Virus record (IMG/VR): IMGVR_UViG_2713896782_000017
Source: a virus
Lineage: Duplodnaviria; Heunggongvirae; Uroviricota; Caudoviricetes
Strand: one strand, 5' to 3'
Length of the DNA: 5,821 nt
Both the position numbers and the translations under genes were made by a program. Shown in pieces: positions 1 through 4,871 of this stretch. How positions within the stretch are numbered: position 1 is the first letter of the stretch; the number at the start of each line of letters is the position of its first letter. The notes under the pieces were generated by a model. It saw only the letters and a list, made by a program, of their open reading frames with translations. It had not been told where the DNA came from and made no database searches.

Positions 1-270
1 GGCCACCAGCAGAGGCGGCATTGCCTTTTCGATCGCCGGTAACAGAGCCTGCATTTTTTCAACTGCATCAGGGGTGTCTTTCTCTATCCAGCGGAAAATT
101 TTCTGGGTATTGCGAGCCAGGGCTTCCGGATGGCTGTCGTCGTACAGTTCAGGAAACGTCATACCCAACTCAAAATAAGCCTGGGTTATTCCAGCTGCCG
201 GAACTTTTTCGCCATCAGGACGCGCCCAGGCATTCATCGCCATGCGGATGTGTTCATGCTTGATTTTCAT
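1..270 (-). CDS. YdaT-family (CII-position) prophage protein, partial; C-terminus lies beyond the left edge of the window
   Basis: Minus-strand frame open from ATG at 270..268 through position 1 (checked codon by codon), giving MKIKHEHIRMAMNAWARPDGEKVPAAGITQAYFELGMTFPELYDDSHPEALARNTQKIFRWIEKDTPDAVEKMQALLPAIEKAMPPLLVA. Purine-rich SD (AAGGGGGG) 4 nt upstream on the minus strand. Lies directly downstream of the Cro-like gene, the position YdaT occupies in Rac-type immunity regions. The N-terminal MKIKHEHI and the W..K..T....EK.Q.L.P.I pattern resemble YdaT as I remember it; not verified by search. Not in the ORF track because there is no in-window stop. Confidence 0.6.
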   Translation of the reverse strand, partial: MKIKHEHIRMAMNAWARPDGEKVPAAGITQAYFELGMTFPELYDDSHPEALARNTQKIFRWIEKDTPDAVEKMQALLPAIEKAMPPLLVA

Positions 271-496
271 GAATCCCCCCTTGGTTAGAAGGCGGATTAT
301 GATCAGAATCGGGAATGACAACCGTCGGTATGTGTAACTCATATTTGAGCGCCCCGGCAGTGACTGCCTGAATTAGCAACGCCCATTTCCACGGAACGTC
401 TTCCCCCCACATGCTGACTGTGGTTTTTGACGTTCCTAGAGCGGCGGCTGTTTTAACAACTCCGCCAAAATAGCCTAATACTTCTGATTTTTTCAT
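254..496 (-). CDS. Cro-like HTH regulator (DicC/YdaS-like), about 80 aa
   Basis: ORF track gives 254..544 (-). I place the start at the ATG at 496..494 (MKKSEVLGYFGGVVKTAAALGTSKTTVSMW...), which has GGAG 6 nt upstream; the ATGs further upstream lack an SD. The G..T.AA.LG.S...VS.W..G..P pattern is a Cro/XRE-type helix-turn-helix. It is divergent from the repressor gene, and its 3' end overlaps the YdaT-like start by 17 nt. Confidence 0.65.
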   Translation of the reverse strand: MKKSEVLGYFGGVVKTAAALGTSKTTVSMWGEDVPWKWALLIQAVTAGALKYELHIPTVVIPDSDHNPPSNQGGIHENQA

Positions 497-587
497 GAGT
501 CGCTCCATAAAACTGAACGCCAAAAGTTTAATAATCAAAACCAAAGAAAGTCAAGAAACAAAACCATCTGTGTTTTAAAATCAAAAC
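497..587. promoter_or_regulatory. Divergent promoter/operator region between the Cro-like and CI-like genes (PR/PRM analogue)
   Basis: 91 bp AT-rich intergenic region. Minus-strand -35 TTGACT (554..549) with a weak -10 candidate about 17 bp downstream (526..531 region), reading toward the Cro-like gene. Plus-strand -10-like TAAAAT (576..581) ends 6 nt before the CI ATG at 588 and there is no SD, implying a leaderless cI mRNA as in lambda PRM. The 8-mer ATCAAAAC occurs at 534..541 and 580..587, and an inverted-repeat element TGTTTT-N6-AAAACA sits at 571..588. Confidence 0.5.
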
Positions 588-2531: not shown

Positions 2532-2858
2532 TTTATCCTCCATTGAGGTTCTGGGTTAAAAATGGAGACCAACACGCTGTCACGTGTGGTCGTGCGCCGG
2601 ACACGGATAAGAATCCGGTACTGACAGTTTACTGAAAGGATATTTCCCTGAAAAGTCAGTGCATAACGCGAAAGCGTACGGCGAAGCTCTTTCCCTTAGA
2701 AGGCTTGTCGTTAGATTTCTTCGAACGTGCGCTTCCGGTTGTGGCACTCCGCGAAATGGCGCGGCGGTAAGTATGGCGGGGTTATTCCTTCCCCATTGAG
2801 GACACCGGGTTGTCAGGTTGACCATACGCTTAAGTGACAACCCCGCTGCAACGCCCTC

Positions 2859-2933: not shown

Positions 2934-2991
2934 TTTCTGGTGACGTTTGGCGGTATCAGTTTTACTCCGTGGCTGCTCTGCCGCCCTTTTT
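2934..2991 (+). ncRNA. dicF: DicF small regulatory RNA (Hfq-dependent, prophage-encoded; represses ftsZ and other targets)
   Basis: TTTCTGGTGACGTTTGGCGGTATCAGTTTTACTCCGTGGCTGCTCTGCCGCCC followed by TTTTT matches the DicF sequence as I recall it, with one apparent A-to-G difference. It ends in a GC-rich stem plus U-tract and lies about 170 bp upstream of dicB, as in Qin. Confidence 0.8.
2949..2991 (+). terminator. Intrinsic terminator forming the 3' end of DicF
   Basis: GGCGG (2949..2953) pairs with CCGCC within GCCGCC (2980..2985), with an internal CAG/CUG pairing, followed by a T5 run (2987..2991). Confidence 0.6.
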
Positions 2992-3084
2992 AAAGTGAAT
3001 TTTGTGATGCGGTGAATGCGGCTAAGCGCACGCGGAACAGTTAAAACCAAAAACAGTGTTATGGGTGGATTCTCTGTATCCGGC

Positions 3085-3116
3085 GTTAATTGTTAACTGG
3101 TTAACGTCACCTGGAG
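3085..3116 (+). promoter_or_regulatory. Palindrome cluster and DicF-complementary segment in the dicB leader
   Basis: GTTAA-TTG-TTAAC (3085..3097) and GTTAAC (3100..3105), followed by AACGTCACC (3103..3111), the exact reverse complement of DicF positions 2939..2947. With G-U pairs and one U-U mismatch the complementarity extends to about 13 bp (2934..2947 against 3103..3116). Confidence 0.4.
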
Positions 3117-3160
3117 GCACCAGGCACTGCATCACAAAATTCATTGTTGAGGACGCGATA

Positions 3161-3349
3161 ATGGAAACGTTATTACCAAACGTTAATACGTCTGAAGGTT
3201 GTTTTGATATTGGTGTTCTGCTCAGTAACCGGGAGTTTACTGAAGATGCCATTAACATGAGGAAATATGAGCCTTATCTGCTCAATGATAATTCCATACT
3301 TTCCCGAATTGCTCTTCTTGAACTTGGTATTTTCGGAGAACGTCAATGA
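3161..3349 (+). CDS. dicB: Cell-division inhibitor DicB (MinC-activating small protein), 62 aa
   Basis: ATG at 3161 with GAGGA 7 nt upstream. The N-terminus METLLPNVNTSEGCFDIGV...FTEDAIN matches Qin DicB as I recall it (METLLPNVNTSEGCFEIGV...); the C-terminal half diverges. The ORF track entry 3056..3349 carries a 5' extension from an upstream GTG/TTG-type start that I do not accept. Directly downstream of dicF. Confidence 0.8.
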   Translation: METLLPNVNTSEGCFDIGVLLSNREFTEDAINMRKYEPYLLNDNSILSRIALLELGIFGERQ

Positions 3350-3626: not shown

Positions 3627-4871
3627 ATGAGCACTGATAAAGAAGAATTTGCGCTATATTGCGAAGCAAAAAATGACAAAGTCAGAAAACGTCTGGGAAT
3701 TAAAGGTGGTTTTTACTGGACTACAGCAAAAAAATTATCTGTTGCCATCTCCCGCTGCATTACCGCAATGGATGACAACGATTATGATGAAGACGACTTT
3801 AAAAAACCCGTTCGCGTCCATTTACCCGTTGTGAATGACCTTCCACCTGAAGGCGTGTTTGATACCGAATTCTGCAACCGATACGAAAAAGGCGGGGAAG
3901 ATGGCATTACAATGGTATTTATCGCGCCCTCTCCCTCCGTGCAGGAGAAACCAGCCAGTACTGACAATACCAACGTCAACGGCGAAGACATGACGGAGAT
4001 TGAGGAGAATATGCTCCTGCCGGTTTCTGGTCAGGAGCTGCCCATTCGCTGGCTTGCGCAACACGGCAGCGAAAAACCAGTAACGCACGTTGCACGGGAA
4101 GAACTTCAGGCATTACATATAGCACGGGCGGAAGAACTGCCGGCTGTTACTGCCTTGGCCATTTCTCACAAAACAAAGCTGCTCGACCCGCTGGAGATTC
4201 GCGACCTTCACAAACTGGTACGCGACACTGACAAAGTTTTCCCTAATCCCGGTAATTCAGACCTGGGACTGATAACTGCTTTTTTCGAGGCATACCTGGA
4301 CGCTGACTACACTGATCGGGGTCTGCTGACAAAAGAGTGGATGAAAGGAAATCGTGTTTCGCGTATCACCCGTACGGCTTCCGGTGCAAATGCCGGTGGC
4401 GGGAACAAAACCGATCGCAATCCGAATTTAGTACACACCTTCGATACGCTGGATGTGGAGATTGCAGCAGCCACACTTCCGATGGATTTTAATATTTATG
4501 AAATTCCGGGCAGCGTTTATCGTCGCGCAAAAGAAATCGTCCTGAAAAGAGAAAGTCCGTTCAAAGAATGGTCCGCAGCACTTCGCGCAACCCCGGGTAT
4601 TCTGGACTATTCCCGCGCCGCTATTTTTGCACTTATCCGGAGCGCTCACCCTGAGTTTTATCACTACCCGGGACGCCTTCAGGGGTATATCAACGCCTAC
4701 TTAACGGAGACTGATCACGAGAACCCCAGCAAGGAAACTCTCACTGCTGCACGACATACACCGGAAAAAGATATCCTGGAAGAAGTTAACCGCGAACTGT
4801 CTGCTAAGCAGGAAACAGAAGAAGAAAATGATGAAGAAAAACCGCAACCATCTTGCGCAATGGCAGAATGA
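3627..4871 (+). CDS. Hypothetical protein, 414 aa, with a strongly acidic C-terminal tail; positional equivalent of Qin ydfE, here uninterrupted
   Basis: Long complete ORF with GAGG 7 nt upstream of the ATG. No transmembrane segment, no Walker A motif (GGGNKT is not GxxxxGK[ST]), and no integrase-like motifs. C-terminus EEENDEEKPQ. All overlapping ORFs in the track are shorter internal or antisense frames. Confidence 0.7.
   Translation: MSTDKEEFALYCEAKNDKVRKRLGIKGGFYWTTAKKLSVAISRCITAMDDNDYDEDDFKKPVRVHLPVVNDLPPEGVFDTEFCNRYEKGGEDGITMVFIAPSPSVQEKPASTDNTNVNGEDMTEIEENMLLPVSGQELPIRWLAQHGSEKPVTHVAREELQALHIARAEELPAVTALAISHKTKLLDPLEIRDLHKLVRDTDKVFPNPGNSDLGLITAFFEAYLDADYTDRGLLTKEWMKGNRVSRITRTASGANAGGGNKTDRNPNLVHTFDTLDVEIAAATLPMDFNIYEIPGSVYRRAKEIVLKRESPFKEWSAALRATPGILDYSRAAIFALIRSAHPEFYHYPGRLQGYINAYLTETDHENPSKETLTAARHTPEKDILEEVNRELSAKQETEEENDEEKPQPSCAMAE

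Follow-up and report, generated by a model that had tools for sequence, protein, structure and literature searches.

A probable DicF leader with a long duplex and a portable four-way-junction domain in a Qin/Rac-like prophage of Escherichia coli

The locus and its genomic setting

We analysed a 5,821-nt stretch of Caudoviricetes DNA (IMG/VR record IMGVR_UViG_2713896782_000017), hereafter called the window, which represents the immunity and early-left region of an E. coli prophage of Qin/Rac-like type. The features found in it are the following, with positions counted from the first nucleotide of the window.

254-544, minus strand: cro-like gene
588-1226: cI/LexA-like repressor gene
1311-1339: promoter-like site from a consensus scan
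Between this site and the phrog_2151 gene: DUF1391 (ydfA-like) gene
Ending at 2321: phrog_2151 gene, 212 aa
2322-2531, minus strand: phrog_4274 gene, 70 aa, antisense (E = 1e-51)
2544-2858, plus strand: structured region under study, probably a leader
2859-2923: assembly artefact, made of 50 N (2859-2908) and a duplicated 15-mer, CGCTGCAACGCCCTC (2909-2923)
From 2924, plus strand: 11-nt linker TGTTATCAATT, joining the leader to dicF
2935-2986, plus strand: dicF with its intrinsic terminator (Rfam RF00039)
3161-3349: dicB
Beyond dicB: DUF1482/ydfD gene, then a RecE-like gene and an integrase fragment

The segment 2322-2858 is 100% identical to the chromosomes of O157:H7, O26 and O121 strains and is found, at least partly, in 4317-4421 of 5426 complete E. 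coli genomes, at a median of 2 places and a maximum of 8 places per genome. The Qin prophage of K-12 has ydfB and ydfC where the window has the DUF1391 gene, the 212-aa phrog_2151 gene and the antisense 70-aa phrog_4274 gene. The last of these lies antisense within the plus-strand early-left operon, so that the operon transcript must cross it in antisense.

Composition and coding capacity of the region

The region 2544-2858 is real and non-coding. It had been described as GC-rich and poor in open reading frames, and both descriptions hold: its GC content is 0.53 against 0.452 in the window (0.587 in 2738-2858), and no plus-strand ORF of at least 60 aa overlaps it, the longest being of 46, 36 and 36 aa. 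In the 59 versions compared, the length of the longest ORF scatters from 28 to 65 aa on the plus strand and from 7 to 88 aa on the minus strand, and a PHROG search of the ORFs of the region gave no match. Indels of 1 nt in helix P3 (see below) among relatives also count toward a non-coding region.

The Arg-rich ATG frame without Shine-Dalgarno sequence, which had been offered as a possible short peptide, does exist, but it starts at 2562 and not at 2558 and has 20 aa and not 19 aa. As a gene it is not supported, since the 20-aa form and the 15-aa form of other copies are unrelated (the difference arising through an inverted 14-mer or an indel), the Qin-type copies are without it, and no Shine-Dalgarno sequence precedes it. 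The 14-mer is the near-palindromic CACGCTGTCACGTG (2572-2585), which is inverted as CACGTGACAGCGTG in other copies (for example L017), the inversion shortening the frame of ATG 2562 from 20 to 15 codons.

Consensus scans found no plus-strand promoter-like site within 2544-2858, which tells against the additional, independently transcribed small RNA that had also been considered. On the minus strand, a promoter-like site at 2559-2530 was within chance expectation and overlaps the start of the antisense gene. For a lambda-type nut site we took as criterion a conserved boxA (CGCTCTTTA-like) beside a boxB hairpin, plus an N gene. The boxA-like GCTCTTT at 2687-2693, which follows a GNRA hairpin, sits in a variable loop and is replaced in K-12, and this candidate was rejected. 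The Arg-rich peptide as an N-like factor was also rejected, its frame not being conserved.

Identity of the region as DicF precursor

The dicF gene was recognized by Rfam RF00039 on the plus strand at 2935-2986 with 75 bits (gathering score 48, E = 9e-16), and a terminator-like site lies at 2969-2984. Inside 2544-2858 the same family gave no match at E <= 1 or at E <= 10, hence the region is a leader and not DicF itself. The Rfam scan that the original prediction had proposed returned nothing for 2544-2858, even at E <= 10.

In K-12, the homologous sequence is a 340-nt spacer without annotation that separates ydfC from dicF, with about 90% identity from 2591 (blastn, query 48-315; a pairwise alignment agrees). 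This Qin spacer has the same order of elements (long duplex, domain, DicF, dicB) on the same strand and is near-identical to the window from 2719 as far as the dicB leader, dicF included. It differs in the apical loop of the duplex, which is diverged, and in the pair that closes helix P3 (C2777/A2795), mismatched in the window copy, unlike in K-12.

In K-12, DicF is made from the polycistronic RNA of dicBp and is not separately transcribed; a 190-nt RNase III-dependent species and a 53-nt RNase E-dependent species are formed, and primer extension revealed no internal promoter (PMC10448788; PMC5069750). A large share of the transcripts stops at the dicF terminator (PMC10448788). [quoted passage not shown] We consider it very likely that 2591-2858 is the untranslated leader of DicF, transcribed from the plus strand in an early-left operon of dicBF type and organized in the two modules described below.

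The RNase III-dependent 5′-end in the window copy was placed by length arithmetic. Precisely, 190 nt back from the K-12 dicF terminator correspond to position 2746 of locus L002 and to about 2732 of the window, inside the 3′ arm of the long duplex.

The distance between the region and dicF that the original prediction implied was wrong. The 15-mer CGCTGCAACGCCCTC at 2909-2923 is an exact copy of 2844-2858, and the complete genome TR01, otherwise 100% identical, reads unbroken ...CCCCGCTGCAACGCCCTCTGTTATCAATTTTCTGG... across the position of the gap. Since complete genomes are continuous across the N-run, we attribute it to a scaffold gap, located at the border of a repeat present in several copies, and not to biology; the N-run and the repeated 15-mer being artefactual, the region ends 11 nt before dicF, which is the true gap from 2858.

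Predicted stems and folding energy

All the stems listed by the original prediction are present, but the coordinates given for them were 1-9 nt off. Their corrected positions are as follows.

2583-2587 / 2601-2605: CGTGT / ACACG
2597-2601 / 2614-2618: CCGGA / TCCGG
2620-2625 / 2655-2660: ACTGAC / GTCAGT, with CTGAAA at 2632 and 2648
2666-2677: ACGC-GAAA-GCGT, the GAAA hairpin
2749-2753 / 2760-2764: CCGCG / CGCGG, corresponding to helix P2

The CGTGT/ACACG stem lies partly in sequence without homology in K-12, and the GAAA hairpin is not a separate unit, being contained in the 5′ arm of a much longer duplex. As for hairpin density, the stems exist but the whole region folds only modestly better than its shuffles, which in itself is not beyond chance (z = -1.86 for the plus strand and -2.18 for the minus strand). 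The values for sub-regions were z = -2.27 for 2591-2661, -2.67 for 2662-2745 and -0.3 for the 3′ domain. Since these z-scores are weak alone, the real evidence is comparative. Judged in this way, only some of the listed stems matter, but the strongest conserved helices (P3, P4 and the long duplex) and a pseudoknot had escaped notice. Structure conservation across homologous prophages, which had been suggested as a check, is found in part: compensatory changes support the 3′ domain, but none were seen in the hairpins of 2591-2661.

The elements of the leader, all on the plus strand, are the following.

2591-2661: optional upstream leader segment, with hairpins CCGGA/TCCGG (2597-2618) and ACTGAC/GTCAGT (2620-2660)
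2662-2686: 5′ arm of the long duplex, CATAACGCGAAAGCGTACGGCGAAG, including ACGC-GAAA-GCGT
2687-2718: variable apical loop of the long duplex, strongly diverged from K-12
2719-2744: 3′ arm of the long duplex, CTTCGAACGTGCGCTTCCGGTTGTGG, with the putative RNase III end at about 2732
2738-2852: module B, a predicted four-way-junction domain of about 115 nt with a probable pseudoknot
2738-2744 / 2846-2852: helix P1, GUUGUGG / CUGCAAC
2749-2753 / 2760-2764: helix P2, CCGCG / CGCGG
2766-2768 / 2804-2806: helix P2a, 3 bp, GGT / ACC
2777-2781 / 2791-2795: helix P3, a variable hairpin with a pyrimidine-rich loop
2807-2815 / 2835-2843: helix P4, 9 bp, closing a loop of 19 nt that hardly varies
2771-2776 / 2822-2827: pseudoknot of GTATGG (P2-P3 linker) with CCATAC (P4 loop)

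The upstream segment and the long duplex

The modules of this mosaic region are separable: blastn matches start at the discrete query positions 36, 48, 119, 195 and 206, and the modules are also carried separately by individual phages. The hairpins of 2591-2661 are conserved in sequence in the Qin-type copies. Many relatives carry other sequence (CCACCTCGCCTGACGTGG...GGCACACAAC) in place of this segment, which is thus dispensable for the downstream elements.

The two arms that follow form an imperfect duplex of about 22 bp, for which RNAduplex gave -29.8 kcal/mol in the window copy against -21.1 +/- 2.2 kcal/mol in shuffled sequences. The duplex is predicted in every relative other than those of P1 type, the energies of the Qin-type copies being -24 to -46 kcal/mol and those of shuffles about -22; the margin is smaller in distant relatives, in which pairing is kept with altered sequence (AACGATGAGAGCATT / AGTGCTCTCTTCGTT; AACAGGTAAGAGCATTCC / GGAATGCTCTTTCCGTT). 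It is conserved in Escherichia, Citrobacter, Serratia, Trabulsiella, Erwinia and Izhakiella, with an apical loop that ranges from about 11 to 128 nt. The predicted duplex fits an RNase III substrate that would give rise to the species of about 190 nt.

Two observations concern this part of the leader in relatives. In those from Erwinia, Izhakiella and Salmonella phage F1055 (L140 4425-4520; L141; L147 1390-1490), the apical loop contains two hairpins with loops similar to a tRNA T-arm (GGTTCAATTCC, GTCCGTTCAATTCGGAC), in which ARAGORN recognized no tRNA. In the deletion variants L013, L057 and L132, the module A sequence ...AACGCGAAA is joined straight to the module B sequence TGGCGCGG, apparently by recombination between CGCGAAA repeats (2668-2674 and 2750-2756 in the window), with loss of the 3′ arm of the duplex and of the 5′ strand of helix P1.

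Covariation in the 3′ domain

About 140 loci were gathered by pattern scans of viral contigs and of GTDB genomes (among them Serratia symbiotica, Citrobacter, Trabulsiella, Erwinia tracheiphila and Izhakiella), and phages P1 and P7, Salmonella phage F1055 and others were added from GenBank. A covariance model, R1, was built on 34 representatives. It scored 155 bits in the window copy and 88-163 bits in all the relatives.

Pairs were counted in two alignments, both fitted to model R1, in which we considered as two-sided any pair changed on both sides. Among 62 distinct sequences, 95.7% of the cells were paired and 12 pairs had changed on both sides, against 3.1 +/- 1.3 in shuffles and 1-4 in slid controls. 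Among 42 distinct sequences, the corresponding values were 94.1% and 14 pairs, against 5.1 +/- 1.6 in shuffles and 2-4 in slid controls. The observed two-sided count was attained by 0 of 500 shuffles in each alignment.

Most of the signal comes from helix P4, in which two-sided changes affect 6 of the 9 pairs (UUGU/ACAA, for instance, becomes UAAC/GUUA in Izhakiella), and the stem of P3 differs in sequence in at least 8 lineages. A P2a pair changes from U-A to C-G in P7, with U.G intermediates elsewhere. Helices P2, P2a, P3 and P4 were also returned independently by RNAalifold on a plain MAFFT alignment, and the minimum-energy fold of the single sequence yields P1-P4, the folding energy of the module itself being unremarkable (z = -0.3). 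That it is the plus strand which folds is shown by the many G.U pairs.

The pseudoknot and helix P1 have to be considered separately. A pseudoknot pair is U-A in P7 and C-G in phage P1, with U.G intermediates elsewhere, and this is the sole compensated case; 5 of the 6 pseudoknot pairs were fixed by the search patterns with which the loci were gathered. Two further viral scans gave three rare variants of it (one G.U and two mismatches) and no compensation. For P1 the support consists of transitions on its 3′ strand and of co-occurrence, and this helix is absent in phages P1 and P7 and in the deletion variants L013, L057 and L132. Overall, comparison of about 60 distinct relative sequences from Escherichia, Citrobacter, Serratia, Erwinia, Trabulsiella, Izhakiella and phages P1/P7 supports the predicted structure of module B by compensatory changes.

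Rfam 15, run on 289 nt with the laxest filters, gave no match at E <= 10, nor did it for the domain in the phage P1, Stx2c and K-12 copies. A tRNA-like reading was discarded, ARAGORN having reported no tRNA or tmRNA in L130, L138, L140, L141, L050 and L034 and RF00005 having given no match on the domain. We found no published description of the module B fold or of any function for it.

Distribution of the domain in other phages

The stretch of phages P1 and P7 named 'dicF-like region', which is the leader of the C1-controlled ban operon, contains the same domain with P2, P2a, P3, P4 and the pseudoknot; R1 scored 88-96 bits on it, and about 95 nt align with 78-82% identity. The name, given in the P1 GenBank record, indicates that the similarity was noticed long ago; a preprint on P1 and hfq is silent on this region. 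In this case the RNA is the primary transcript from Pban: the domain begins about 40 nt past the C1-controlled Pban start, an intrinsic terminator lies about 28 nt past the domain, and tRNAs and ban are found downstream, where operons of DicF type have dicB. The long RNase III duplex, helix P1 and the canonical DicF seed or hairpin are missing from these copies.

In general, module B is always followed by a variable spacer of 14-46 nt and then by an intrinsic terminator hairpin. At least 9 spacer variants ('seeds') were found, of which canonical DicF is one. The distance from the promoter differs among contexts. In Stx2c-type and Erwinia-type prophages, the domain is located about 280 nt past a promoter (11/12 matches) beside a cI-like gene and before all the early-left genes, and no N-like gene was found in these loci; in operons of Qin type it is about 1 kb from the promoter. 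Phage phiSTEC1589-Stx1c, the only relative with an N gene, retains the long duplex together with a DicF-like terminator, and the domain is missing from it. A search of the loci gathered up to that stage for homologues of its N protein found none besides phiSTEC1589 itself. On the minus strand of Stx2c-converting phages (L004 38-226), about 2 kb upstream of the domain, a C4 antisense RNA (80 bits) adjoins isrK (60 bits).

Proposed mechanism

According to the K-12 literature, the operon transcript runs through the region and is converted by RNase III into long DicF and by RNase E into short DicF. We propose that the duplex of about 22 bp (2662-2686/2719-2744) is the RNase III substrate and that a cut at about 2732 makes the 5′-end of the 190-nt DicF. 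Directly 3′ of this cut there would be the four-way junction of about 115 nt (P1-P4 and the 3-bp P2a) with its loop-to-linker pseudoknot, then the 11-nt linker and finally the 53-nt DicF, freed by RNase E. GUUGUGG (2738-2744) is common to the long duplex and to P1, so the domain would close only after the RNase III cut or after unzipping of the duplex.

The folded domain may act as a protective and positioning 5′ scaffold for the 5′-monophosphorylated long isoform. Such a scaffold would set the conversion into active DicF by RNase E and possibly also the passage of the dicF terminator. That the loops hardly vary across genera points to a specific partner rather than to simple 5′ protection. 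A DicF leader made of a duplex module and a junction module is the explanation that we hold with good confidence; its co-transcription and its dependence on RNase III and RNase E are taken from the K-12 literature, and the homology, the duplex, the covariation of the domain and the modular spread come from the comparisons above.

Processing of a longer precursor by RNase III or RNase E also yields other small RNAs, such as ManS of Salmonella and MicX of Vibrio, on the same principle. Precisely, an RNase III cut of a long duplex or an RNase E site releases a 3′ sRNA that binds Hfq and ends at a terminator. Between the cut site and the sRNA, these precursors are not known to carry a multi-helix domain that is both conserved and mobile.

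Alternative readings of the domain

It is possible, and we advance it tentatively, that the 2738-2852 domain is an undescribed mobile phage RNA class with its own biochemical activity, which would have gone unnoticed by passing for inert DicF precursor. The most attractive version may be a put-like or protein-binding module that steers terminator read-through or RNase access in early operons without N, and the class may span lambdoid phages, phages P1/P7 and prophages of Enterobacterales.

One specific form of activity is that of a cis-acting antiterminator like the put RNA of HK022, which would suppress the following intrinsic terminator via RNA polymerase modification or otherwise; put itself overcomes the terminators that lie downstream of it by way of the zinc-binding domain of the beta′ subunit of RNA polymerase. 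Early operons lacking N would then be read through into dicB or into the tRNAs and ban of phage P1, with the DicF-type sRNA as a terminated or processed by-product. The positions of the domain agree with this: in every context a terminator follows it by 14-46 nt, before the operon genes; in phages P1/P7 it comes about 40 nt past the Pban start and before terminator, tRNAs and ban; in Stx2c-type and Erwinia-type prophages it comes about 280 nt past the promoter near the cI-like gene, and no N-like gene follows; N-encoding phiSTEC1589-Stx1c is without it, though duplex and DicF-like terminator are kept. Moreover, the near-invariant loops suggest a protein partner. Nevertheless, the number of independent lineages that link the domain to the lack of N is very small, the Qin-type domain is about 1 kb from its promoter, and a large share of the K-12 transcripts does stop at the dicF terminator (PMC10448788). 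The likeness to putL/putR of HK022, which are also structured nascent RNAs upstream of terminators in early operons of a temperate phage without N, may be one of function only: there is no sequence or model similarity (R1 gave no match at E <= 1 in the whole HK022 genome), and put has about 70 nt, with two stem-loops and a 5′ triplex, against the 115-nt pseudoknotted junction considered here (PMC9378689). We regard an antiterminator as unlikely.

We consider it rather improbable that the domain is a functional RNA by itself, that is, a stable fragment of about 135 nt produced by an RNase III cut at the 5′ side and an RNase E cut at the 3′ side, which would bind a host or phage factor or act as a sponge through the pyrimidine-rich loop of P3. 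In favour of this reading, the domain behaves as a cassette that moves independently, combined with at least 9 seed/terminator modules and accompanied or not by the upstream duplex; its loops are conserved from phage P1 to Erwinia prophages; and the P3 loop nearly always has a UCCU/CUCC tract that resembles an anti-Shine-Dalgarno sequence. However, this tract is missing in Serratia, the domain never occurs without a downstream terminator hairpin, and a fragment of about 135 nt has not been reported, although the DicF probes of the published Northern blots would miss it (PMC10448788).

We consider it very unlikely that the region controls the dicF terminator as a ligand-sensing riboswitch or attenuator. 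A compact junction with a pseudoknot, placed just before a terminator, would suit this role, and in the minimum-energy fold of the 190-nt RNA GGCGGUAAG is paired with the CCGCC arm of the terminator. The latter pairing, however, is not conserved and is impossible in phages P1/P7, whose terminator is GCCCAUCUUCGGGUGGGC; the linker varies freely in length and sequence, no Rfam aptamer was matched at E <= 10, and there is no metabolic gene context.

Finally, we give almost no credence to an extra gene in the region, whether for an sRNA with its own promoter or for a short peptide like METNTLSRVVVRRTRIRIRY, since the 20-codon Arg-rich frame opened by ATG 2562 and the several ORFs of 36-46 aa are countered by the unconserved frames and ORF lengths and the lack of a Shine-Dalgarno sequence, PHROG match and plus-strand promoter-like site described above, as well as by primer extension in K-12, in which no internal promoter appeared (PMC10448788).

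Returning to the DicF leader, the region as such is the known DicF precursor and requires no new biology. What is added is a structure, supported by covariation, that takes up the 5′ two-thirds of the long DicF isoform, and module B as a widespread, unannotated, portable cassette, present with many seeds in phages P1/P7, in Stx2c-type phages and in prophages of at least 6 genera. Should the domain prove to control terminator read-through or maturation by RNase E, this would account both for the dosage of the toxic dicF and dicB functions and for the expression, by phages without N, of early operons headed by a terminator; a new Rfam family would also be gained.

Seeds and terminators downstream of the domain

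Between the domain or duplex and a GGCGG...CCGCC terminator, the DicF-like sRNA family has at least 9 single-stranded seeds (L005 2655-2725; L004 2625-2690; L006, L023, L028, L034, L057, L088). The seed AUUGCUGUGUGUAG recurs in E. coli, Trabulsiella and Izhakiella, and the near-variant AUUGCUGUGUGAAG is found in Salmonella phage F1055.

In distant relatives (L140 4690-4790; L141, L138, L130, L147) the terminator hairpin is enlarged and its loop bears a Shine-Dalgarno sequence and an ATG (GTG in F1055). The mini-ORF that starts there has 11-25 codons, begins with MFYR... in 4 of 5 cases, has no conserved C-terminus and crosses the 3′ arm of the terminator; the arrangement looks like a translation-coupled attenuator.

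The spacer between dicF and dicB, that is the dicB leader, is covered by a sub-threshold match to Rfam STnc100 (2984-3193, 34.7 bits, gathering score 47), and comparable sub-threshold matches occur in K-12, in phiSTEC1589 and in phage P1 upstream of tciA (L003 3842-3961).

A tandem duplicate of the seed-plus-terminator cassette follows a single copy of the domain in L146 (1600-1760), which was deposited as Actinobacillus phage vB_Apl-pPE4 and which, despite the stated host, has an E. coli-like set of ydaT, dicA, kil and exoVIII.
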